Of a DNA stretch of 62,035 bases, positions 3,881 to 61,112 are shown one piece after another (positions within the stretch are counted from its first letter, which is position 1; every line of letters begins with the position of its first letter). The position numbers and the translations under genes are program-made. A model generated the notes under the pieces. It searched no databases, had not been told where the DNA came from, and saw nothing but the letters and a program-made list of their open reading frames with translations. The DNA comes from an uncultured Clostridia bacterium. GTDB taxonomy: Bacteria; Bacillota; Clostridia; Oscillospirales; Oscillospiraceae. The stretch is taken from contig CAMKED010000001.1 of the NCBI GenBank assembly GCA_946411475.1, positions 1 to 62,035 on the forward strand. The letters are read 5' to 3'.

Positions 3881-4040
3881 GGGGCGTCCCCGAAAGGACT
3901 TGCTTCGCTTCGGAGGACGCTGCCCCCTACAAGCGGGTTCCGTACCTGTCATTCTGAGCAAAGCGAAGAATCCGCCCCCGTCTCCTGTTGCCGATTGCCT
4001 AATACCTAATGCCTATTGTCTATCGTCTGTTTCCTATTGC
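3881..4040. repeat. Mosaic repeat block (GC hairpin, GTCATTCTGAGC...GAAGAATCC unit, CTATTGCC-type stutter)
   Basis: The unit gtcattctgagcaaagcgaagaatcc lies at 3948-3973. It is followed by tctcctgttgccgattgcctaatacctaatgcctattgtctatcgtctgtttcctattgcc. The stutter supplies the recD2 stop (cta at 4034-4036). Confidence 0.85.
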
Positions 4041-11044: not shown

Positions 11045-11102
11045 CCATGATGTCTGGTGCAGTCTATGATTTACTGCATTGAACTATTCCAAAATTCGCA
11101 GC

Positions 11103-11323
11103 GCCGGAAATCTGCCGGCCAAGTCAAGTCCGTAGTGCCGGTAATCTGCCGGCCAAGTCAAGTCCGTAGTGCCGGTAATCTGCCGGCCAAGTCAAGTCCG
11201 TAGTGCCGGCAATCTGCCGGCCAAGTCAAGTCCGTAGTGCCGGCAATCTGCTGGCCAAGTCAAGTCCGTAGTGCCGGCAATCTGCCGGCCAAGTCAAGTC
11301 CGTAGTGCCGGCAATCTGCCGGC
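11103..11323. repeat. 34-bp tandem repeat, 7 hairpin copies
   Basis: The unit is CTGCCGGCCAAGTCAAGTCCGTAGTGCCGGnAAT. TCTGCC recurs at 11111, 11145, 11179, 11213, 11247, 11281 and 11315 (period exactly 34). The variable position runs A, T, T, C, C, C, C. Each unit carries GCCGGnAATCTGCCGGC. Confidence 0.95.
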
Positions 11324-11339
11324 TGTTTCAGGAGATAAA

Positions 11340-12038
11340 ATGATAAGATTAGATAAATTTCTGTCCGACGCCGGCCTGGCCTCCCGGCGGGAACTGAAAG
11401 ACCTTCTGAAAGCCGGCGCCGTCACGGTCAACGGCAAGCCCGTCACGGACGGGGCTGCCAAGGTAGATCCCGAGGCGGATCGGATCTGCTTCCACGGCGA
11501 GACCGTGGAGGGACCGCGCCGGGTGGTCCTGCTGCTCCATAAGCCGGCGGGCTTTGTGACCTCCACCGAGGATCCCCGGGACCGGACCGTCATGGAGCTG
11601 ATTCCTGCTGCGTACCTGCGGCACAAGGTGGTTCCCGTCGGCCGCCTGGACAAGGAGACCGAGGGCCTGCTGCTGCTCACCAACGACGGCGAGCTGGCGC
11701 ACCGGCTGATCTCCCCGAAGCATGGGGTCGAGAAGCGCTATTACGCCCGCCATGCGGGAACGGCTTCGCCCGAGGACGTCGCGGCGTTTGCCGCGGGCTT
11801 GACGCTCAAGGACGGAAGCGTTTGCCGTCCTGCCGTCCTGCGGCCGCTCGGTCTCGGCGAGAGCGAGATCGTTGTTACCGAGGGCAAATACCACCAGGTC
11901 CGCCGCATGATGGCCTCTCGCGGTCTGCCGGTGGAATACCTTCGCCGCGAGCAGGAGGGAAGCCTGTGCCTGGACGGCCTGGCCCTCGGCGCAGTCCGGG
12001 AGCTGACGGAGGAGGAGATCAAGGCGCTTTGCGAATGA
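11340..12038 (+). CDS. RsuA/RluB family rRNA pseudouridine synthase
   Basis: The ATG at 11340 follows caggagataaa. The translation shows an S4 domain (MIRLDKFLSDAGLASRRELKDLLKAG.VTVNG) and the catalytic motif VGRLDKETEGLLLLTNDGEL. Confidence 0.85.
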   Translation: MIRLDKFLSDAGLASRRELKDLLKAGAVTVNGKPVTDGAAKVDPEADRICFHGETVEGPRRVVLLLHKPAGFVTSTEDPRDRTVMELIPAAYLRHKVVPVGRLDKETEGLLLLTNDGELAHRLISPKHGVEKRYYARHAGTASPEDVAAFAAGLTLKDGSVCRPAVLRPLGLGESEIVVTEGKYHQVRRMMASRGLPVEYLRREQEGSLCLDGLALGAVRELTEEEIKALCE

Positions 12039-12290
12039 AGTATGTGCCTCGCACATATTTGGACGCTGAACTCTGAACCCTGAACTCTACGGAAGCTATT
12101 ACAAACAACAGCCACCCCTCCACCGCCTTGAGGCGGTCCCCCTCCCCTGCAAGCAGGGGAGGTCATGCCCTGAACTCTACGGAAGCTATTACAAACAACA
12201 GCCACCCCTCCACCGCCTTGAGGCGGTCCCCCTCCCCTGCAAGCAGGGGAGGTCATGCCCTGAACTCTGAACCCACCCTGATCTCTGTTC
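12033..12290. repeat. GAAGTAT unit, TCAGRGT stutter and two identical tandem copies of a 90-nt element
   Basis: Copies 12081-12170 and 12171-12260 are identical 90/90: tgaactctacggaagctattacaaacaacagccacccctccaccgccttgaggcggtccccctcccctgcaagcaggggaggtcatgccc. A third copy lies inverted at 46751-46840. Confidence 0.95.
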
Positions 12291-13616: not shown

Positions 13617-13664
13617 GTAGGGACAAGCATTGCTTGTCCGCGGACGAGCGCTGCTCGTCCCTAC
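13617..13664. repeat. Inverted doublet of GTAGGGAC palindromes (REPIN-like)
   Basis: The sequence is GTAGGGACAAGCATTGCTTGTCC-gc-GGACGAGCGCTGCTCGTCCCTAC. It begins 3 nt after the stop of the CdaR-like gene. Confidence 0.9.
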
Positions 13665-19475: not shown

Positions 19476-19624
19476 CGGTTTGCCGGAGGAAAACAATCAG
19501 ATAACAGATAATCGTTTCGGTATTGCTGCGCGATGAATTGTAGTTCTATTTGCCAATTCGTTGAATTGGAAAAAAACGACAATTCTCAATTCTCACCGCT
19601 CAATTCTAAATACAGGAGCTGTCA

Positions 19625-20307: not shown

Positions 20308-20796
20308 ATGGCGAAGGAATTCAAAATCACAAGCATCCGGCTCAAAGAACTGGAAGAGGAACTGAAATACCTCAAAACGACCCGGGAAAAGGAAGTCGCG
20401 GAGCATCTGAAGGAAGCACGCTCCTTCGGCGACCTGTCGGAGAACAGCGAATACGATGAGGCGAAAAACGAGCAAGCACAGCTCTACGGCCGCATCGCAG
20501 AGGTGGAGAATATTCTGGCCAATGCCGTCATCATTGACGACGGCCTGGACGGCGTGGAGGAATCCAGCATCGGCCGTGTCGGCCTGGGATGCACCGTGAA
20601 GGTCCGCGACCTGGAGCTTGACGAAGAGGACATCTACGCGATCGTCGGCTCTCAGGAGGCAGATCCCAAGAATTACCGGATCTCCGATGATTCTCCCTTC
20701 GGCCGCGCCATGCTGGGCAAAACAGTCGGCGACGTCGTCACCGTTGAAGCCCCTGCCGGTACCATCCAGTTCGAGATCCTTTCTGTCGAGAAATAA
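20308..20796 (+). CDS. greA: Transcription elongation factor GreA
   Basis: Internal ATG at 20308. The translation is MAKEFKITSIRLKELEEELKYLKTTREKEVAEHLKEARSFGDLSENSEYDEAK... Confidence 0.93.
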   Translation: MAKEFKITSIRLKELEEELKYLKTTREKEVAEHLKEARSFGDLSENSEYDEAKNEQAQLYGRIAEVENILANAVIIDDGLDGVEESSIGRVGLGCTVKVRDLELDEEDIYAIVGSQEADPKNYRISDDSPFGRAMLGKTVGDVVTVEAPAGTIQFEILSVEK

Positions 20797-20799
20797 TCC

Positions 20800-21014
20800 G
20801 TAGGGGCGCACAGTGTGCGCCACGGGAGGAAGTGCGTTATCGAGACACCACCTCATCCGTCATCGGGCTTCCGTGAGACGCCCGCTGCCACCAGCGCTTA
20901 ATGTTGCCAGTTGCGTCAGCATAGCTGCCGCACTGGCGATGAAATCCACAACAGTCCCCCGGACTGTTGTGTCCCCTCAAGGGGAAGGCTTTGTAGGGGC
21001 GCACAGTGTGCGCC
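20800..21014. repeat. Mosaic block between greA and lysS
   Basis: GTAGGGGCGCACAGTGTGCGCC occurs at 20800 and again at 20993 (direct). ccacctcatccgtcatcgggcttccgtgagacgcccgctgccacc lies at 20848-20892, the hairpin CACAACAGTCCcccGGACTGTTGTG at 20947-20971, and CCCCTCAAGGGGAAGG at 20972-20989. Confidence 0.9.
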
Positions 21015-32344: not shown

Positions 32345-33145
32345 ATGTTCCAAAAGCTTACTGATACGTCATATGCCGTCTCCGCCTGGTCCGGCGGGAC
32401 GACGACGCAGCTTGCAATTTTTCCGCCGGAGGCAAAGTATGCCGACCGGGACTTCCTTTGGCGGGTCAGCTCTGCCACGGTGGATCTGGAGGAATCGGAC
32501 TTCACCGCCCTGCCGGACTATGACCGCCTGATCGCCACCCTGCAGGGGGAGATCGTACTGACCCACAACGGCGGCGCGCCGATAAAGCTTCACCCTTTCG
32601 AGGTCCACGCCTTTTCCGGTGCGGACGCGACGCACAGCGTCGGCTGCTGCACGGACTTCAACCTGATGCTCCGCCGCGGCCGCGCCGCCGGAACCATGGA
32701 GGCTTTGCGTCTGACGGACGCACCGACCCGCCTCTCCGTAGGGACAAGCATTGCTTGTCCGAAAACCTCCCCTGCAAGCAGGGGAGGAGGAGCGCCGCAG
32801 CGCGGCGCGGAGGAGGGGTGCCTCCCGCCCGAGGTACCAACTGCCCCCGCTGTAGGGACAAGCATTGCTTGTCCGCCCAATGCCTCTGAAGAGACGCTGC
32901 TTCTCTACTGCGCAGAGGGTTCCTGCACCGCAACCGTAGGGGCGGTTGAAACCTCCCCTGCAAGCAGGGGAGGTGGAGCGCCGCAGCGCGGCGCGGAGGA
33001 GGGGTGTTGCCCGCAACCCGCAGCGGCTATCCCCGTCTCCCTCCGCGCAGGCGAAACCCTCCTGCTGACTGCCCCCGCAGCGCTGACCTTCACCGGCGAG
33101 GCCACCCTCATGCTCTGCCGGATCCGGACTGACAACAAAACGTAA
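32345..33145 (+). CDS. HutD/Ves family protein carrying two in-frame repeat-derived insertions
   Basis: The ATG at 32345 follows caggagg. It shows HutD-like sequence (SAWSGGTTTQLAIFPPEAKYADRDFLWRVSSATVDLEESDFTALPDYDRLIATLQGE). At 266 aa it is longer than the ~185 aa usual for the family. The extra ~80 aa map exactly onto repeat units at 32736-33010. Confidence 0.7.
   Translation: MFQKLTDTSYAVSAWSGGTTTQLAIFPPEAKYADRDFLWRVSSATVDLEESDFTALPDYDRLIATLQGEIVLTHNGGAPIKLHPFEVHAFSGADATHSVGCCTDFNLMLRRGRAAGTMEALRLTDAPTRLSVGTSIACPKTSPASRGGGAPQRGAEEGCLPPEVPTAPAVGTSIACPPNASEETLLLYCAEGSCTATVGAVETSPASRGGGAPQRGAEEGCCPQPAAAIPVSLRAGETLLLTAPAALTFTGEATLMLCRIRTDNKT
32736..33010. repeat. Intragenic repeat units inside the hutD-like ORF
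   Basis: GTAGGGACAAGCATTGCTTGTCC occurs at 32738 and 32852. CCTCCCCTGCAAGCAGGGGAGG + GAGCGCCGCAGCGCGGCGCGGAGGAGGGGTG occurs at 32767-32820 and 32952-33006. A GTAGGGGCGG head lies at 32936. Confidence 0.9.
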
Positions 33146-36109: not shown

Positions 36110-36422
36110 GCCTTCCCCTTGAGGGGAAGGTGCCCCAGTGCGCACACTGGGGCGGATGAGGTGGTGCCCCAGCAACGCAATTGAGAGTTGAGAATTGAGA
36201 ATTGTCGGTGTTTTGCAGATTGCCATCTGCAAAACGAAAAACGATGAAGCCGACAGCGACGCGAAGACAGAGCCAGCGCTACAGGCCGTAGGGACGACTC
36301 GGAGCCGTCCGCATATTCCTTTTTTCATCGTTCAAATGGCAATTTGAACGATACCATCACTTTCAACGTTCCATTTTCAACTTTCAACTGTTTTTCCCCT
36401 GGCACACACTGTGCGCCCCTAC
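36110..36422. repeat. Large mosaic repeat block between the M28 and aldo/keto reductase genes
   Basis: The block holds GCCTTCCCCTTGAGGGGAAGG + TGCCCCAGTGCGCACACTGGGGC + GGATGAGGTGG (36110-36164) and a TTGAGAR stutter (36181-36204). It also holds the AT hairpins GTTTTGCAGATtgccATCTGCAAAAC (36210-36235) and TCGTTCAAATggcaATTTGAACGA (36328-36351). GTAGGGACGACTCGGAGCCGTCC lies at 36288, a TTTCAAC stutter at 36361-36390, and an inverted GTAG palindrome at 36401-36422. Confidence 0.9.
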
Positions 36423-38266: not shown

Positions 38267-38289
38267 GTAGCGGCGCACACTGGTGCGCC
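38267..38289. repeat. GTAG-headed palindrome (GTAGCGGCGCAC variant)
   Basis: The sequence is GTAGCGGCGCACACtgGTGCGCC. Confidence 0.85.
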
Positions 38290-46675: not shown

Positions 46676-46893
46676 TTTGGGTTCAGAGTTCAGAGTCCGT
46701 AGGGACGAGCATTGCTCGTCCGTGGTTCAGAGTTCAGGGTTCAGAGTTCAGGGTATGACCTCCCCTGCTTGCAGGGGAGGGGGACCGCCTCAAGGCGGTG
46801 GAGGGGTGGCTGTTGTATGTAATTGCTTCCGTAGGGTTCAGAGTTCAGGGTTCAGAGTTCAGAGTCCGTCCCCTGTTGCCGATTGCCTTGTCA
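46676..46893. repeat. Mosaic block: TCAGRGT stutter, GTAGGGAC palindrome, inverted 90-nt element, CTGTTGCC stutter
   Basis: gggttcagagttcagagtcc is followed by GTAGGGACGAGCATTGCTCGTCC (46699-46721) and another stutter. The inverted copy of the 12081-12170 element lies at 46751-46840 (86/90 identical by eye). A further stutter and ccctgttgccgattgccttgtcacc follow. Confidence 0.9.
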
Positions 46894-50272: not shown

Positions 50273-50328
50273 GGCCAAAAAAGCTGTTGCGGCGCGCTTC
50301 GGCAGCGGCGCGGGACCCGCTTCCCCGC

Positions 50329-50506
50329 CTGTCATTCTGAACGAAGTGAAGAATCCGTACCCCCGCGGCAAGCCGCAGGCGTAAATGAATCCTGAAAAAC
50401 GAAAAACTGTAAAATGAAGAATGGGGGTATTCTCAAATTGCCATTTGAGAATGAATTGAAATAGAGACGAGGGACGCGGATTCTTCGCGTTGCTCAGAAT
50501 GACAGG
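50329..50506. repeat. MITE-like element bounded by inverted GTCATTCTGA...GAAGAATCCG units
   Basis: The left end is cctgtcattctgaacgaagtgaagaatccg (50329-50358). The right end is cggattcttcgcgttgctcagaatgacagg (50477-50506). The interior holds a GC hairpin CCGCGGCAAGCCGCAGG and the AT hairpin ATTCTCAAATtgccATTTGAGAAT (50429-50452). Confidence 0.8.
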
Positions 50507-50554
50507 CACTGAAACGCCCGTGGGTTTTATTATTTTTCAAAAATGAAAAAGCTC

Positions 50555-53074: not shown

Positions 53075-53120
53075 AACAGTTCCTCTTTGTTCGATTATAG
53101 CAAAATGCTATTCAGTGTCA

Positions 53121-53326
53121 GAATAGTTGAAAGTTGAAAATGGAAAGGTATCTATTCAGTCGCACCCGCTCCGTAGTGGCCGCGCACCTGCGCGGCCATG
53201 GCGCGTATCGCTTTTTTCTGTGGATTTATGGCCGCGCAGGTGCGCGGCCACTACGACCCTGCTGAACAGATACATGGCAATTTGAAAAACTCCTCCATTT
53301 TCAACTCTCAACGTTCATTTTTCAAC
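53121..53326. repeat. TTGAAAR stutters flanking a long REPIN-like inverted doublet
   Basis: gaatagttgaaagttgaaaatggaaagg leads into GTATCTATTCAG...GTAGTGGCCGCGCAccTGCGCGGCCAT (53173-53199). A 28-nt spacer separates it from ATGGCCGCGCAggTGCGCGGCCACTAC (53228-53254) and ...CTGAACAGATAC. The block ends with ccattttcaactctcaacgttcatttttcaactc. Confidence 0.9.
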
Positions 53327-53369
53327 TCGATCTGCATTGCACGCAGTTCTTTGACACAGTGCTTCGCGA

Positions 53370-54173
53370 TCAGATATGATCTACCTTGTTCATGCTCCCC
53401 ATCCGATAGCCTCCCAGGTCGACTGTGACCCAGCGGTAGCCCAGGCCCCGCAGAGCTTCGTTGACTGCGGCGGCCAGGGCCGGATCCCGGAGCCGGGCCA
53501 TTCCGGACTCGTCCAGCTCGAGCCGGGCCAGATCGCCGTGATCCCGCACCCGGAGCTGCCGGAAGCCCTGCGCTGCGAGCCAGTTCTCCGCGGCCTCCAC
53601 CCGGGCCAGGCCCGCGGCGGAGATGGGCCGGCCGGTCACAAAACGGGTCGCCAGACAGGCCATCGCGGGCTTGTCCCAGGTGGACAGGCCCAGTTCCTTA
53701 GAGATGGCGCGAATCTCCGATTTGGTCAGCTCCGCTTCCAGCAGGGGAGAGCGGACGCCCAGCTCCCGGATGGCTCGCATGCCGGGGCGGTAGTCGCCTA
53801 AGTCGTCCAGATTGGAGCCCTCGGCCACCCATTGCAGGCCGAGGCTCCGGGCCGTCTCTGCGATTTGCGTAAAGATGGCCTTTTTGCACAGATAGCAGCG
53901 CTCCGGCGGGTTGTCCGCTACGTCGGGGATGGACAGCGTGTCCACGTCCGGCAGAATATGCCGGACGCCCTCGGCCGCACAGAACGCGGCGGCAGCCTCC
54001 AGCTCCCGCGCCGGAACGAAGCGGGAGCGCACCGTCACCGCCGCGGCCCGCTCGCCCAGCGCTTCCCGGGCCGCCCGCAGCAGCAGCGTGGAATCCACGC
54101 CGCCCGAAAAGGCCACGGCCACGGAGCCCAGCTCCCGCAGCAGCCCCAGCAGCCGATCATACCCGCCGCTCAT
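53370..54173 (-). CDS. larE: ATP-dependent sacrificial sulfur transferase LarE
   Basis: The start at 54173 makes an ATGA overlap with the larC stop. The translation ...VAVAFSGGVDSTLLL... shows the PP-loop SGGxDS, with a conserved Cys context (...CYLCKK...). Confidence 0.85.
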   Translation of the reverse strand: MSGGYDRLLGLLRELGSVAVAFSGGVDSTLLLRAAREALGERAAAVTVRSRFVPARELEAAAAFCAAEGVRHILPDVDTLSIPDVADNPPERCYLCKKAIFTQIAETARSLGLQWVAEGSNLDDLGDYRPGMRAIRELGVRSPLLEAELTKSEIRAISKELGLSTWDKPAMACLATRFVTGRPISAAGLARVEAAENWLAAQGFRQLRVRDHGDLARLELDESGMARLRDPALAAAVNEALRGLGYRWVTVDLGGYRMGSMNKVDHI

Positions 54174-55507
54174 GCTTCTGCATGTAGGGACAAGCATTGC
54201 TTGTCCGTCTGAATTGCTTGCCGTACCGTGTCAATGGAAATCCCCTGTTCCAGTGCAATACGCGCCAGGTCATCATATTCGTATTTGACCCGTTCCACGC
54301 CGAACCCGGAGGCAATCTTTCGCCGCACGGGGCCGAACGCGGTCTCTACGGTGTCCACCCGCCGCTCCAACACGGCCCGGCGCAGGACGGCTTCCCGCAC
54401 CCCTAAGGTCGTGGTGTGCCGGAAGAGCAGGGAGATCATGCTGTCCCGATCTGCGTGTTTACATAACACACAAAACATCGTTCCGGGACGGCCTTTCTTC
54501 ATCCCAATGGCCTCGGTCCAAACGTCCAGCGCCCCGGCCTCCAACAGCCGCTCGACCGCGAAGCCGACGGCCTCGCCCGTCATGTCGTCGAGATTGCAGC
54601 GGAGCTCCAGCACCTCGTCGGCCTCCTGCTCCGCCGTTTCGCCCAGCAGGGCGCGGACGCAGTTGGCCGCAGGGAAGTCCTTCCGGCCCATGCCGTAGCC
54701 GATGGCTGCGGTCCGCATCACGGGCATTGCCCCGAACTTGTTGACATAATATTTTAACAAGGCCGCGCCCGTCGGCGTGCAGAGCTCGCCCTGGATCGCG
54801 CCGCCGTAGATCGGCACGCCCCGCAGCAGCTCCGCCGTAGCGGGGGCTGGGACGGGCATCAGCCCGTGCGCGCAGCGAACCTGCCCGCAGCCGACGTGGA
54901 TGGGGGAGCAGAGGATCTGTGCCGGGGCCAGCTCGTGGATCAGCAGGCAGACGGCCGCCACGTCGGCCACCGCGTCCAGGGAGCCCACCTCATGGAAGTG
55001 GATCTCCTCCACCGGGACGCCGTGCACCTTGCTCTCAGCCTCAGCCAGCAGCCCGTATACCGCCAGCACGTCAGCCTTGACCGCCTCGGGCAGGTCAAGA
55101 TGATCCTGCACCAGATGCGCGATCCCATGCATCCCGGTATGGGGATGATGATGGTGCTCCCCGTCCCCTGGTGACTGTTGACTGGTGACTGGCGACTCAT
55201 GATGCTCATGCTCGTGCGCCTCGGGAAAGCCTTCCCCCTGGGGGGAAGGTGTCGGCGCAGCCGACGGATGAGGGGGTGTCTCGTCGTGGTGATGCACATG
55301 CTCCTCCGCGCCGTCCACGGTCACGCGCATGTGCGTGCCGGAAATGCCGCACTTCACGGAATTCTCGGCCCGGTATTCCACCCCGGGGATGCCGAGCGCG
55401 TTGAGCCGGGCCAAAAACTCCGCCTTGTCGGGCAGCAGCTCGAGCAGGGCCGCCGTGAGCATGTCGCCCGCGGCGCCCATAGAGCAGTCAAAATAGAGTG
55501 TTTTCAT
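54170..55507 (-). CDS. larC: Nickel insertion protein LarC (nickel-pincer cofactor biosynthesis)
   Basis: 445 aa. MKTLYFDCSMGAAGDMLTAALLEL... is the DUF111 N-terminus. A His-rich central region carries a repeat-derived insert. Confidence 0.85.
   Translation of the reverse strand: MKTLYFDCSMGAAGDMLTAALLELLPDKAEFLARLNALGIPGVEYRAENSVKCGISGTHMRVTVDGAEEHVHHHDETPPHPSAAPTPSPQGEGFPEAHEHEHHESPVTSQQSPGDGEHHHHPHTGMHGIAHLVQDHLDLPEAVKADVLAVYGLLAEAESKVHGVPVEEIHFHEVGSLDAVADVAAVCLLIHELAPAQILCSPIHVGCGQVRCAHGLMPVPAPATAELLRGVPIYGGAIQGELCTPTGAALLKYYVNKFGAMPVMRTAAIGYGMGRKDFPAANCVRALLGETAEQEADEVLELRCNLDDMTGEAVGFAVERLLEAGALDVWTEAIGMKKGRPGTMFCVLCKHADRDSMISLLFRHTTTLGVREAVLRRAVLERRVDTVETAFGPVRRKIASGFGVERVKYEYDDLARIALEQGISIDTVRQAIQTDKQCLSLHAEA
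54184..54206. repeat. GTAGGGAC palindrome inside the last codons of larC
   Basis: GTAGGGACAAGCATTGCTTGTCC on the plus strand is read on the minus strand as ...TDKQCLSLHAEA*, ending at the larC/larE ATGA junction. Confidence 0.9.
55170..55277. repeat. Intragenic GTGAC stutter and CCTTCCCC composite inside larC
   Basis: ggtgactgttgactggtgactggcgac spans 55170-55196. GCCTTCCCCCTGGGGGGAAGG + TGTCGGCGCAGCCGAC + GGATGAGGGGG spans 55230-55277. The block translates on the minus strand as PPHPSAAPTPSPQGEGF...SPVTSQQSP. Confidence 0.9.
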
Positions 55508-57064: not shown

Positions 57065-57970
57065 TCAGTTTCCTCCCGTGACGGTCGGCGCTGCGGTCGT
57101 GTTGACGACGGGAACCTGATCCTTATTCTCGGAAGCAGTGCCGCCTTCTACGTTCAGCTCAGCCAGATTCAGGTTGATTCCCCAATCTGCGGCGTGTGCG
57201 GCGCAGTAGGAGCAGATCGCGGTACGGCCGGACTCAATGGCCTCGGTGACGGAGCCCTTGTAGACGGAGCTGGATTCACGGATATAGGGGCAATCGACCG
57301 CAACCTGCTCAGCGTCCGGGTCGCCGTTATACTTCAGGTGATACTTGTGTCCGAACTGGGTCCAGTAGACGTCGCCGTTGATCTGGGACTCAGCCTCGTC
57401 CTTCTGCTCGGCGGAGATGGGATGATAGTCCGCGGAGGCGGCTCCGGTGATCAGCAGCGCCACGGCTGCAATGATCGCGGCGATGGTCTTGGTCTTCTTG
57501 TCCAGCTTGTCGCTCTTCAGCAGCAGAACGATCAGCGGGATGAAGCAGATGCAAGCCATGATGACGCCCAGCTCGTTCCAGAGATAGAACAGGAACTTGC
57601 CGCGCTTCTCGCTCATGGGCTTGATGTGGTTGGCCTTCTTCCAAAGCTGTGCCGCAGTGATGCAGGCGGCCATATCCAGGACCACGAAACCGATGAACGC
57701 AATCCACATGTTGGTGTCGCCGTTATGCGTGAAGCGGATGACGAAGTTCTTGGTGATCGCCATGATGGCAAAGACCTCACAGACGATCGCAACGATCCAG
57801 AGAAGCACTGCGCCGATGCGCAGGCCGACGGTGCTGCCGCCGGTGGGCTTGTTGGGCGTGATGACGGTCTGCGGCTTTCTGGCCGCGGCGGGCTTCTTGG
57901 CGGGCTCGGCCGCCTTCTTGGCAGGCTCCGCAGCCTTCTTTTCCGTATTGCGGACGATCTTTTCTGCCAT
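57065..57970 (-). CDS. Hypothetical membrane protein (KKAAEPA repeats, 4 TM, Cys-containing C-terminal domain)
   Basis: A 301-aa ORF in an operon-like arrangement with the DUF937 gene (1-nt gap). No family was recognised. Confidence 0.5.
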   Translation of the reverse strand: MAEKIVRNTEKKAAEPAKKAAEPAKKPAAARKPQTVITPNKPTGGSTVGLRIGAVLLWIVAIVCEVFAIMAITKNFVIRFTHNGDTNMWIAFIGFVVLDMAACITAAQLWKKANHIKPMSEKRGKFLFYLWNELGVIMACICFIPLIVLLLKSDKLDKKTKTIAAIIAAVALLITGAASADYHPISAEQKDEAESQINGDVYWTQFGHKYHLKYNGDPDAEQVAVDCPYIRESSSVYKGSVTEAIESGRTAICSYCAAHAADWGINLNLAELNVEGGTASENKDQVPVVNTTAAPTVTGGN

Positions 57971-58014: not shown

Positions 58015-58644
58015 CTACCTTCTATTATCTATATCCTGTGGTTTTTTGTCAATAGGAGATTTCATGTTTTTTGAAATTTTATACCATAAACAGGCGAGCC
58101 AGTAGCCCATGATCGCCCCGGCGGTGTTCAGGATCAGATCGTCCAGCTCCGAGACCCCGGAGCCCAGAACGAATTGCATCGTCTCAATGCCCAGCGAGAG
58201 CAGAAAGCCCCACAGCATTGCAACTGTAGCGCCGGCAATCTGCCGGCCATTCTTCCGTAAGGGACGGGTTTCCCGGCCCGCCGCCGCAGCTCCCTGTAGC
58301 GGCGCACACCGGTGCGCCACGGGGAACGGTGCATTGTCGGTACGCCCCTCATCCGTCAGCGGGCTTGCGTGAGACGCCCGCTGCCACCTTCCCCCTCGGG
58401 GGAAGGCATTCCGCAGCCGCACCAGCACGCCCACCGGCATGAACCAAACCAGATTTCCCACAAACAGATAGGTGAAATACCGCCAGTATTCGATCCGAAT
58501 CAGCTTTGCGTAATAGGCAAAGGCGTCCCATTCGATCCGCCCGGAGAAGAGCCCGTGCCGAAAGCAGCCGTTCCGGAATACAGTCAGACGCAGCAGGGCG
58601 GCAAGCCAGAGAACGGCAAGCACCCGGATTACAGTTTTTTTCAT
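58015..58644 (-). CDS. VanZ family protein carrying a ~61-codon in-frame repeat-derived insertion
   Basis: Its ends are VanZ-like (MKKTVIRVLAVLWLAALLRLTVF... and ...LLSLGIETMQFVLGSGVSELDDLILNTAGAIMGY). The central 58225-58407 is made entirely of repeat units. Confidence 0.65.
   Translation of the reverse strand: MKKTVIRVLAVLWLAALLRLTVFRNGCFRHGLFSGRIEWDAFAYYAKLIRIEYWRYFTYLFVGNLVWFMPVGVLVRLRNAFPRGGRWQRASHASPLTDEGRTDNAPFPVAHRCAPLQGAAAAGRETRPLRKNGRQIAGATVAMLWGFLLSLGIETMQFVLGSGVSELDDLILNTAGAIMGYWLACLWYKISKNMKSPIDKKPQDIDNRR
58225..58407. repeat. Intragenic block of four repeat units inside the vanZ-like ORF
   Basis: The units are GTAGCGCCGGCAATCTGCCGGCC (58225-58247), GTAAGGGACGGGTTTCCCGGCCC (58257-58279) and GTAGCGGCGCACACcgGTGCGCC (58296-58318). 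The fourth is CCCCTCATCC + GTCAGCGGGCttgcgtgagacGCCCGCTGC + CACCTTCCCCCTCGGGGGAAGGC (58345-58407). Confidence 0.9.
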
Positions 58645-58654
58645 GCCCCTCCAG

Positions 58655-58750
58655 TTTCAGTTGAAAGTTGAAAATGGAAAGTTGAAAATGAATGTGTTTT
58701 GCAAATTGCAATTTGCAAAACTCCAAAATTCTCCATTCTCACTTCTCAAT
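58655..58750. repeat. TTGAAAR stutter, AT hairpin, TTCTCA stutter
   Basis: tttcagttgaaagttgaaaatggaaagttgaaaatgaa is followed by GTTTTGCAAATtgcaATTTGCAAAAC (58696-58721). Then comes ccaaaattctccattctcacttctcaatt, which contains the cinA stop at 58739-58741. Confidence 0.85.
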
Positions 58751-59660: not shown

Positions 59661-59790
59661 GGACGGCTGCGAGCCGTCCCTACTGGCGTTCCCGTCTGTC
59701 ATTCTGCCTTGCCTTGAGCGCAGTCGAAAGGGGAGCGAAGAATCCGTATTCCCCGTCTCCTGTTGCCTGCTGCCGATTGTCTTCTATCCC
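59661..59790. repeat. Inverted GTAGGGAC palindrome, interrupted GTCATTCTG...GAAGAATCC unit, CTGTTGCC stutter
   Basis: GGACGGCTgcgAGCCGTCCCTAC lies at 59661-59683. gtcattctg[ccttgccttgagcgcagtcgaaagggga]gcgaagaatccg follows at 59698-59745. Then comes ccccgtctcctgttgcctgctgccgattgtcttctatcc, which contains the thiI stop (cta at 59784-59786). Confidence 0.85.
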
Positions 59791-60962
59791 TGATACCGGA
59801 TCTTGACCAGCTCGGTGTTCTCGATGGCGCGGGCGATCAGCCCCTCCACGTCGAGCTTCTGCTCGATGCGCTCCGCCTCGGCCAGCTTGGGCTTGGTCTT
59901 GGGGTGTTTGGGCGTGAAGACGGTGCAGCAGTCCTCGTAGGGGAGAATGGAGGTGTCCAGCGTGTCGATCCGCCGGGCAAGGACGACGATCTCCTCCTTG
60001 TCCATGCCAATGAGCGGGTGGAACACGGGCATGTCCACCACCGCGTGGGTCACGTTCATGGCCTGCATGGTCTGGGAGGCCACCTGACCCAGGTTTTCGC
60101 CGGTGACCAGGCACTCGCAGCCGTGATCCCGGGCAATGCGCTCGGCGATCCGCATCATGAACCTACGCATGATGATCGTGAAGTATTCCTCCGGGCAGTT
60201 GTCCCGGATGGCCTCCTGAATTTCGGTGAAGCCCACGATGTCCACGGTCATGCGGCCGCAGTAGCGTGCCATTTTCCGGGCCAGCTCCAGCACCTTGTCC
60301 TTGGCCAGCTCTGAGGTATAGGGGTAGGAGAAAAAGTGGATGGCCTCTAACTCCACGCCGCGCTTGGCGATCATGTAGCCCGCCACGGGAGAATCAATGC
60401 CGCCTGAGAGCAGAACTGCCGCCCGTCCGCCCACGCCGGTGGGCAGGCCGCCCGCGCCGGGCTCGGCCGGGCCGTGGACGTAGGCCGCAAAGTCGCGTAC
60501 CTCCACGTAGACCGTGTAATCCGGCTTGTGGACGTCCACCGGAACCTCGGGATAGGCTTCTGCCAGCCGTCCGCCGATGGTCTGAGAGATCTGGATGGAG
60601 TTGAGCGGAAAACGCTTGTCGGAGCGCTTGGACTCCACCTTGAAGGACTTGGCCGCCGCCAGATCGTCGCCCAGGTAGGCCACCACCGCGTCAAAAATCG
60701 CGTCCTCGCTTTTCTCGCAGGGACGGCAGCGGCAGAGGGAAATCGCACCGAAGATCGTGTGGCAGGCGTCCCAGGCCCCGTCCACGTCGCAGAGCTCGTT
60801 TTCCGGCTCCACGTAGACCGTGGACTGCAAAATCGTGACCTTGAAGTCCCCAAAGGGCCGCATCCGCCGCGCCACGTTGGTGCGCAGCTTGTTTTCAAAC
60901 ATCTTCTTGTTCGCGCCCTTGAGGACGATTTCTCCTAATTTCAGTAAAAAGATTTCGTTCAT
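59784..60962 (-). CDS. thiI: tRNA 4-thiouridine(8) synthase ThiI
   Basis: The internal ATG at 60962 follows aaggagaa. MNEIFLLKLGEIVLKGANKKMFE... is the THUMP-domain N-terminus, and LLSGGIDSPVAGYMIAKRG is the PP-loop. Confidence 0.9.
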   Translation of the reverse strand: MNEIFLLKLGEIVLKGANKKMFENKLRTNVARRMRPFGDFKVTILQSTVYVEPENELCDVDGAWDACHTIFGAISLCRCRPCEKSEDAIFDAVVAYLGDDLAAAKSFKVESKRSDKRFPLNSIQISQTIGGRLAEAYPEVPVDVHKPDYTVYVEVRDFAAYVHGPAEPGAGGLPTGVGGRAAVLLSGGIDSPVAGYMIAKRGVELEAIHFFSYPYTSELAKDKVLELARKMARYCGRMTVDIVGFTEIQEAIRDNCPEEYFTIIMRRFMMRIAERIARDHGCECLVTGENLGQVASQTMQAMNVTHAVVDMPVFHPLIGMDKEEIVVLARRIDTLDTSILPYEDCCTVFTPKHPKTKPKLAEAERIEQKLDVEGLIARAIENTELVKIRYQG

Positions 60963-60986
60963 GGGTATTCTCCTTGGTTCAAAATA

Positions 60987-61112
60987 GCCTTCCCCTTGAG
61001 GGGAAGGTGGCACGGCGAAGCCGTGACGGATGAGGTGGTGTTCCGCGTATACGGAAGGAAAAAGCAAAGCAGGCAGTTCGTTCCCGGCAAGCCTTCCCCT
61101 CAAGGGGAAGGC
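60987..61112. repeat. CCTTCCCC composite element plus a second CCTTCCCC hairpin
   Basis: GCCTTCCCCTTGAGGGGAAGG + TGGCACGGCGAAGCCGTGAC + GGATGAGGTGG spans 60987-61038. GCCTTCCCCTCAAGGGGAAGGC lies at 61091-61112. Confidence 0.9.

Follow-up and report, generated by a model that had tools for sequence, protein, structure and literature searches.

Can a gene remain a gene once repetitive DNA has taken over its centre? The question is raised by a vanZ-like open reading frame (ORF) in a 62,035-nt stretch of contig CAMKED010000001.1 (assembly GCA_946411475.1), which comes from an uncultured Clostridia bacterium of the family Oscillospiraceae; the whole of this stretch is referred to here as the window. 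Within the ORF lies a block of 183 nt at 58225-58407 that is made up of repeat DNA and is read on the minus strand as 61 stop-free codons (codons 80-140, AFPRGG...IAGATV; in full AFPRGGRWQRASHASPLTDEGRTDNAPFPVAHRCAPLQGAAAAGRETRPLRKNGRQIAGATV). An initial annotation had given these limits, this length and this translation, and all three agree with the sequence and the ORF list. From the comparison of related loci set out below, we think it likely that the gene encodes a functional VanZ membrane protein, in which repetitive extragenic palindromes (REPs) and one module of the host's own genome that resembles a bacterial interspersed mosaic element (BIME) have settled in the turn between transmembrane (TM) helices TM2 and TM3.

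Orthologs with and without the insert

The family assignment of the gene carries across the block. The Pfam VanZ profile (PF04892) matches residues 14-187 (E=1.6e-18, 68 bits against a cut-off of 30.1) and is covered over positions 5-125 of its 126, so that the match spans the insert and bears out the earlier view of a VanZ gene with in-frame repeat DNA at its centre. An exact look-up of the 209-aa protein in a contig index gave no record, and close alleles were reached via homologs, of which 250 were found, mostly of 137-157 aa. Across the insert-bearing and insert-free VanZ proteins of alignment A1, 47 columns are invariant.

To compare the loop at the DNA level, 162 loci were collected (L and P numbers denote loci and proteins), and the loop was measured as the distance between two anchors, residues 78 and 141. 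The two halves of the gene were located separately by tblastn, so that a frameshift could not hide a locus. About 45 close orthologous loci, with proteins of roughly 137-157 aa, have a distance of 15 nt, and more distant Lachnospiraceae-type homologs one of 15-24 nt. Insert-free relatives (P0021-25, P0030, P0033, P0041 and others) link TM2 to TM3 by RIQGGR/LWKAAL, the slash marking the junction at which the window's clade carries length-variable, mutually unalignable sequence in alignment A1. Inserts are found in 15 distinct alleles from related rumen Oscillospiraceae of that clade, with distances of 48-291 nt (48, 51, 63, 69, 99, 117, 126, 186, 189, 216 in three compositions, 243, 276 and 291 nt).

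The short distance in the orthologs points to a short turn as the older condition, and the comparison shows the ancestral state to be a turn of 5-8 codons, RxQGGR/LW. Repeat-free orthologs are about 150 aa long, as had been expected, and hold no conserved segment at this place beyond that turn; a conserved subfamily-specific domain was ruled out as an identity for the block, as relatives are without the segment. Relative to insert-free orthologs, the gene has gained 171 nt (57 codons) net rather than 183 nt, because the ancestral 5-codon turn has been overwritten.

In most alleles the insert DNA consists of GTAG-headed palindromes and the composite described below; read on the coding strand, it always shows ...CTAC. 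No homolog of the 62-aa insert peptide came up in a word-indexed search. An exhaustive HMMER search with the 61-aa insert against 1.84 billion representatives returned five matches and no catalogue of host proteins; two of the five (P0123 and P0124) look like spurious ORFs across repeat clusters.

Reading frame and selection

The frame is retained in every insert-bearing allele (15/15), each insert having a length that is a multiple of three and no stop. Eight of these in-frame alleles (L001, L002, L003, L011, L017/L068, L067, L069 and L074) were recovered by DNA-pattern scanning and tblastn, that is, independently of gene calls. Under neutrality, the chance of eight such outcomes is at most (1/3)^8, or ~1.5e-4, a figure that is approximate as the alleles are related. 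In 16 of the 17 allele comparisons, dN/dS of the flanks lies at 0.18-0.36; the near-identical WIN/L067 pair gives 0.51, with very few substitutions. These ratios show the flanking VanZ core to be under purifying selection, which lends indirect support to the view that the 209-aa VanZ may be made with its insert translated. Taken singly, the block is weak evidence: dinucleotide shuffling leaves any given frame open in 25% of cases, and a multiple of three is expected one time in three. It is the comparative data that carry the case.

Repeat units of the block

The block had been described as four different repeat units. Its composition of repeats stands, while the partition does not: the block appears better described as two REP singletons and one modular element of ~115 nt, joined by linkers of 7 and 10 nt, since the modular part can be aligned end to end with an element at 20796-20995 (Table 1). 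The first singleton (GTAGCGCCGGCAATCTGCCGGC / GTAGCGCCGGCAATCTGCCGGCC) has nine family copies in the window against none expected by chance, and its family is also present in the vanZ loops of L003, L017, L155, L157, L161 and L162. The second, at 58257, is single-copy in the window, and among the sequences compared its other copies lie only at the homologous position of the vanZ loops of relatives (L002, L017, L069, L148, L154 and L159). These copies mostly have a GTAG or GCAG head; the head is GTAA in the window and GTAG in L148, L154 and L002.

In the modular element, a GTAG REP and a 26-nt linker are followed by the CCTCATCC box, a variable hairpin and the CCTTCCCC..GGGGAAGG hairpin, the whole being read in antisense as AFPRGGRWQRASHASPLTDEGRTDNAPFPVAHRCAPLQ. 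Its REP part (GTAGCGGCGCAC..GTGCGCC; GTAGCGGCGCACACCGGTGCGCCAC) has two window copies against none expected, the second at 38267. For the composite of box and hairpins there are five window copies, again with none expected; these were found with a gapped pattern, as a pattern of fixed spacing has no match and the middle hairpin varies in length. A long form of the module (~195 nt) is intergenic at 20796-20995 and is found within vanZ loops too, those of L161 and L157. In the intergenic copy, the variable hairpin is separated from the CCCCTCAAGGGGAAGG hairpin by an extra segment of ~85 nt that has its own hairpins; another GTAG REP comes after the copy, at 20993.

The REP types concerned include the GTAGGGAC and GTAGCGCC types, and the insert and junction peptides of the window protein include ASHASPLTDEGR, TDNAPFPVAHR and NGRQIAGATVAMLWGFLLSLGIETMQFVLGSGVSELDDLILNTAGAIMGYWLACLWYK fragments. 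The GTAG tetranucleotide stands at the 58226 and 58296 ends, and the palindromes are G+C-rich and of REP size. In a census of the 62 kb, 23 palindromes were strictly GTAG-headed and G+C-rich; they fall into at least six subfamilies and match the anatomy of GTAG-tagged REPs (PMC3733652).

Other identities fit less well. The two module ends (GTAGCGGCGCAC... and ...GGGGGAAGG) do not pair up as inverted repeats, as they would in a MITE (miniature inverted-repeat transposable element), and the sole flanking direct repeat seen is a 7-bp CGGATAC around the REP pair of L155. The alternation of a BIME is lacking as well, all vanZ-loop units sharing one orientation, although conserved linkers do exist inside the module. 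A CRISPR-like array was ruled out, given units from different families without spacer structure. Rfam gave no meaningful match, either for the whole window at gathering thresholds or for the local region at E<=1, which rules out a known structured RNA; an intron, intein or bypass element was rejected on the same result and on the open frame, which needs none.

Table 1. Features of the vanZ gene and of its repeat block, followed by units of the insert alleles as read on the coding strand (AF2, AlphaFold 2; pLDDT, predicted local distance difference test)
Feature	Position	Strand	Evidence, copies or reading
VanZ-family ORF, 209 aa, frame intact through repeat block	58015..58644	-	ORF list, Pfam, homologs, synteny
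N-terminal VanZ core, residues 1-79: TM1, amphipathic helix, TM2	58408..58644	-	invariant columns W13..G72, AF2 helices
Repeat-derived insert, residues 80-140	58225..58407	-	absent from ~45 orthologous loci; pLDDT, charge, hydropathy
C-terminal VanZ core, residues 141-209: TM3, acidic SELDD loop, TM4, basic tail	58015..58224	-	invariant G146..G180, AF2 helices
REP singleton, family GTAG-YGCCGGCAATCTGCCGGCC, 7-bp stem, 3-nt loop	58226..58249	+	antisense reading GRQIAGAT
REP-like palindrome GTAAGGGACGGGTTTCCCGGCCC (GTAAGGGACGGG...), 8-bp stem, 1 mismatch	58257..58281	+	antisense reading GRETRPLR
Modular hairpin element, short form, ~115 nt	58292..58410	+	end-to-end alignment with 20796-20995; vanZ loops of L001, L002, L157, L161
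GTAGCGGCGCAC-ACCG-GTGCGCCAC palindrome, REP part of module, 9-bp stem, 1 mismatch	58296..58320	+	2 copies
Composite core: CCTCATCC, variable hairpin CAGCGGGC(11 nt)GCCCGCTG, hairpin CCTTCCCCC-TCG-GGGGGAAGG	58347..58406	+	5 copies
Coding-strand GGCCGGCAGATTGCCGGCGCTAC			peptide GRQIAGAT
Coding-strand GGACGGGAGACCCGTCCCCTAC			peptide GRETRPLR
Coding-strand GCGGACAAGCAATGCTTGTCCCTAC			peptide ADKQCLSL
Coding-strand GCGGACGGCARRGTGCCGTCCCTAC			peptide ADG[KR]VPSL
Coding-strand ...GTGCGCCGCTAC			peptide VAHRCAPL
Coding-strand 114-nt module			peptide AFP[RL]GG..CAPLQ

Stop codons and orientation of the units

The initial annotation had implied that the repeats are intrinsically depleted of stop codons, and the counts lend this no support; on the second of the conditions that the annotation itself had set for refutation, this part falls. 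In the 20 REP units of the window, open frames number 100 out of 120, and dinucleotide shuffles predict 98.3. Of the 30 frames of the composite, 20 are open with ~25 expected, a stop excess being seen in two of its frames, and in the 183-nt block (70% G+C) just one frame of six, the one in use, is open against 1.9 expected. There is thus no intrinsic stop depletion; G+C-rich palindromes, and antisense REPs especially, are cheap to read through. A REP contains a single stop, TAG or TAA, which is part of the head and falls in one sense frame, and the antisense frames are all open in 20/20 units.

With the stop confined to one sense frame, antisense REPs never introduce a stop into the gene, and the units in the vanZ loop are all antisense to it; outside vanZ, these families lie on either strand. 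This placement of the stop explains the uniform orientation only partly, because two of the three sense frames are open too. The orientation probably results from head-to-tail growth off a founder, from strand-specific insertion, or from both.

Turnover of units in the loop

The alleles show that, in one rumen Oscillospiraceae clade, different REP families have filled and refilled the turn, replaced one another there and expanded in tandem. Most alleles share the GRETRPLR unit (58257 in the window); it is probably the founder and has resided in the loop longest. The slot after GRETRPLRK holds three different REP families, depending on the allele, and relative to the GRETRPLR founder the 114-nt module is upstream in the window but downstream in L002, an allele in which the REP stems have decayed.

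REP arrays with a 45-nt period are present in L152 and L069. Near-identical proteins of 164, 179, 194, 209 and 239 aa (P0014/18, P0016, P0015/17/20, P0009 and P0012, respectively) differ by whole units of 15 aa (45 nt), a series of steps that amounts, at the sequence level, to the behaviour of a variable number tandem repeat (VNTR). Two close relatives with a flank dS of 0.14 differ in occupancy: L149 is empty and encodes 151 aa, whereas L155 is filled by two REPs (+102 nt), and the L155 insert is the one bordered by the direct repeat CGGATAC. The difference between the two is compatible with either an insertion or a precise deletion.

Position in the protein and character of the peptide

The insert had been suspected to lie between TM helices, and the AF2 models agree. 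For the window protein (mean pLDDT 56), helices are predicted at residues 2-22, 54-80, 136-159 and 167-194, with an amphipathic helix at 39-50, whereas residues 84-135 form coil with pLDDT below 50. For the insert-free ortholog P0022 (151 aa; 93-sequence alignment, mean pLDDT 70), a helix at 53-76, a turn at 77-80 and a helix at 81-101 are predicted; this TM2-turn-TM3 region, with its turn of four residues, is the best predicted part (pLDDT 83-85). The layout of four predicted TM helices is alike in both proteins. According to these models, the insert sits in the tight turn between TM2 and TM3, a site predicted to be compatible with the fold.

Basic residues lie at the N-terminus (MKK), in the turn (R/K) and in the tail (rich in K/R), and the SELDD loop is acidic, which, under the positive-inside rule, suggests that the turn is cytoplasmic. 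All inserts are hydrophilic, with a grand average of hydropathy of -0.3 to -1.3, a net charge of 0 to +7 and no TM-like 19-mer. The window insert has a net charge of +6 and is predicted to be a disordered linker. Judging from these properties, the inserts should leave the topology undisturbed.

Proposed explanation and alternatives

A nest of REPs in the turn of a functional VanZ could have arisen as follows. The repeats would spread as selfish DNA, through a single-strand mechanism like that of REP-associated tyrosine transposases (RAYTs) and IS200 and/or through slippage and recombination between neighbouring REPs. A resident REP would attract more REPs, head to tail and in one orientation. 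Selection on the host gene would filter the outcomes, and with antisense REPs stop-free in every frame, only length would matter. The resulting peptide, rich in Gly, Ala, Pro and Arg, positively charged and non-hydrophobic, may be tolerated as a floppy cytoplasmic linker because it adds no TM segment and does not violate the positive-inside rule. No function is implied for the insert itself, which is most likely a neutral or nearly neutral 'decoration'.

Several points weigh against this explanation. A crude motif search of the six-frame translation found no RAYT or other transposase in the window, which covers only 62 kb, so that the mechanism of mobilisation is inferred. The unit at 58257 is not established as a dispersed repeat, and L074 and L011, the shortest two of the alleles, have G+C-rich inserts that are not clearly REP. 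Kinship among the alleles means that the eight in-frame outcomes may not be fully independent. The REPs of the window show a weak strand bias of their own (15 on the plus and 5 on the minus strand, p=0.04), GC skew being flat and uninformative, and a founder effect could account for the units all being antisense. Confidence is modest in both AF2 models, and the cytoplasmic side of the turn is read solely from the distribution of K and R.

A more active part for the turn has perhaps a modest chance of being right. The turn would then be a self-propagating landing pad, at which a REP-mobilising system active in rumen Oscillospiraceae adds REPs beside the CTAC tail of those already resident, by strand-specific insertion, swapping and tandem expansion in steps of 24/45 nt. 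If so, the loop would be a fast-evolving, VNTR-like protein segment, and the pair of L149 and L155, with its 7-bp repeat, would capture the insertion chemistry.

It seems improbable that the insert is adaptive, as a new cytoplasmic interaction or regulatory segment with its VNTR-like variability under selection. Inserts do persist in many lineages, are consistently basic and disordered, and change copy number in 15-aa steps, and the 38-aa module recurs in frame in different lineages. Their content, however, is almost wholly different between relatives, and P0021-25, P0030 and P0033 of the same clade have none, which leaves no conserved peptide for selection to act on. The decay of REP stems in some alleles (L002) is as expected of neutral sequence, and the character of the peptide follows from the G+C-rich palindromes that encode it.

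Could the hairpins instead act as RNA or DNA within the operon, through mRNA stabilisation, pausing or attenuation before the downstream gene, with translation incidental? Folding of the block's RNA recovers the four hairpins expected of it (-99.7 kcal/mol, z = -2.26), with stems largely intact in the window allele, and REPs lie mostly downstream of ORFs and are thought to be RNA elements (PMC3733652). The z-score is nevertheless modest and Rfam is silent; relatives free of the insert keep the operon, the downstream gene has a promoter-like site of its own, and ribosomes would unwind the hairpins. We consider this reading very improbable, an RNA-level role being conceivable and not required by the data.

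That vanZ is a decaying pseudogene, its repeats having hit dispensable DNA and its open frame being luck, is hardly credible. VanZ-like genes are accessory, REPs usually avoid genes, and for a single block the odds of an open frame of suitable length are, as seen above, not extreme. Decay is at odds with the frame kept in all 15 alleles, eight of them found without gene calling, with the dN/dS of the flanks and the 47 invariant residues, and with the retained synteny and the conservation, in the 3' end, of a promoter-like site of the downstream gene. An assembly or binning artefact, with repeat-rich reads mis-joined inside vanZ, can be dismissed even for a metagenome-type source full of short repeats, because the identical architecture of 186 nt recurs in independent assemblies of different projects (L067, JGI, 97%; L147, ENA, 99%; cluster P0001, 12 members) and analogous inserts are found in at least 14 other alleles.

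Gene neighbourhood and other repeats in the window

The gene order thiI-DUF952-cinA-vanZ-membrane protein is kept in relatives, as seen from the compared locus DNA. Within the last vanZ codons lies a promoter-like site, TTGACA-17 nt-GATAAT (11/12 consensus; 58024-58052, minus strand), 54 nt upstream of the ATG of a 301-aa membrane-protein gene (57065..57970). The C-terminal VanZ peptide PIDKKPQDIDNRR is conserved even in orthologs of 45-50% identity, probably because of this site. The membrane-protein gene has near its 5' end an in-frame tandem repeat of 21 nt (57886-57940, 2.6 copies) that encodes KKAAEPA and is also kept in L067, L147, L152 and L154.

Repeat DNA touches two further genes. 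In the larC ORF (54170-55507, minus strand), the composite at 55230-55273 is in frame inside a His-rich region and is read in the opposite orientation, as PPHPSAAPTPSPQGEGF, just as the initial annotation had it. The larC of L157, 74% identical, shares this insert, to which nothing corresponds in the LarC of PDB 12bi; the last 12 larC residues, TDKQCLSLHAEA*, are encoded by a REP at 54184. The thiI ORF (59784-61103, minus strand) has 439 aa against 392 aa in relatives, and its extra 47 N-terminal residues (..PPSPQGEGYF..), read through the composite at 60988-61035, are probably not translated.

Outside genes, the family of the 58226 REP forms a head-to-tail array at 11058-11363, with ~7 copies (11098-11325), a period of 34 nt and 97% internal identity. 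Periods of REP arrays are 34, 66, 73, 90, 98 and 99 nt outside vanZ, and 45 and 90 nt within it. A hairpin composite of another kind (CCGCCTTGAGGCGG + CCTCCCCTGCAAGCAGGGGAGG) forms a perfect tandem duplication of 90 nt (12078-12257), has an inverted copy 34 kb away (46743-46861, 119 nt, 93%) and has related copies at 32763 and 32949 (32763-33014). Inverted REP doublets, similar to the pairs known as REPINs, are intergenic at 13617/13664, 48218/48296 and 53173/53254, whereas the units of the vanZ loop are uniform.

An AT-rich dispersed repeat with heptamers of the GTTGAAA/GTTGAGA type (e.g. GTTGAAAGTTGAAAATGGAAAGTTGAAAATG) is intergenic at 58652-58749, in the cinA-vanZ spacer, and at 36333-36401, 53113-53145, 53274-53334 and 19567-19605; motifs like it occur in relatives (L152, 3839-3878). 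The dispersed repeat GTCATTCTGAGCRAAGCGAAGAATCCG (3938-3982, 50318-50357 and 50469-50516) translates as VILSEAKNP, a peptide also found in the junk-like database proteins P0123 and P0124, beside the composite-derived AFPLGGRWRRASH.

Significance and comparison with known systems

REP-type selfish DNA is abundant in this uncultured rumen Clostridia lineage, and its proteins seem to absorb it at permissive points, namely the helix-helix turn of vanZ and the His-rich linker and C-terminus of larC. Such inserts inflate and diversify predicted proteins and can split protein clusters, and the repeats also seed spurious ORFs, as in P0123, P0124 and the N-terminal extension of thiI. The alleles in 15-aa steps may serve as strain-typing markers, and the locus offers natural empty, filled and swapped sites for studying REP movement in Firmicutes.

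The closest relatives of the vanZ units are the intragenic GTAG/CGTC REPs, palindromes of 20-40 bp with a GTAG end that lie within ORFs, often in groups that encode 20-30 aa (PMC3733652). Intragenic REP clusters of 43-82 aa have been reported, with insertions inferred via shorter homologs (PMC3733652, Di Nocera et al. 2013); the text of that survey has no occurrence of Firmicutes or Clostridia. The vanZ palindromes are likewise GTAG-ended, intragenic and clustered. In contrast to the dimers of those REPs, which are mostly in opposite orientation (PMC3733652), the vanZ units stand head to tail and antisense to the gene, and several families share one site with turnover between close relatives.

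Rickettsia palindromic elements (RPEs) are the classic example of palindromes inserted in frame in unrelated protein genes (Ogata et al. 2000, 2002, summarised in PMC10969869). As with RPEs, the vanZ insert is missing from orthologs, keeps the frame without a stop and lies at a predicted loop site; selfish palindromic DNA enters in frame at fold-compatible positions, and one family occurs in several genes, here vanZ and larC. Whereas an RPE is a single element of ~100-150 bp with a conserved peptide, the vanZ block is a nest of REPs of 24-25 nt and a ~115-nt module whose peptides are not conserved, and the host is a free-living gut anaerobe rather than an intracellular bacterium with a reduced genome. 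The module at 58292-58410 and its counterpart at 20796-20995 resemble BIMEs in being hairpin chains with conserved linkers, in a short and a long form. The BIMEs of enterobacteria consist of alternating REPs and are extragenic, in contrast to the vanZ mosaic, which has a uniform orientation and would be translated.

Tandem growth in the loop recalls the mycobacterial interspersed repetitive units (MIRU-VNTR), tandem units of 40-100 bp with strain-variable copy number and open frames that overlap genes (PMC3184786). The 45-nt arrays of L152 and L069 and the series of 164, 179, 194, 209 and 239 aa are alike in this respect; MIRUs lie between operon genes, whereas the vanZ array lies within a TM-helix hairpin and is built of REPs. 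Intragenic ERIC, BOX, RUP, Correia and QMITE elements are small mobile repeats with open frames that become joined to host ORFs, either within them or at their 3' end (Delihas 2007/2011, PMC3184786; PMC10969869), and the REP-derived C-terminus of larC is comparable. Unlike MITEs of the ERIC/BOX type, with their terminal inverted repeats and target-site duplications, the vanZ insert has no terminal inverted repeats. The phenomenon is thus already known from other bacteria, and no new kind of system is present here; particular to this locus are its host lineage of uncultured rumen Oscillospiraceae, the gathering of multiple REP families and a BIME-like module in one turn, and the VNTR-like alleles.

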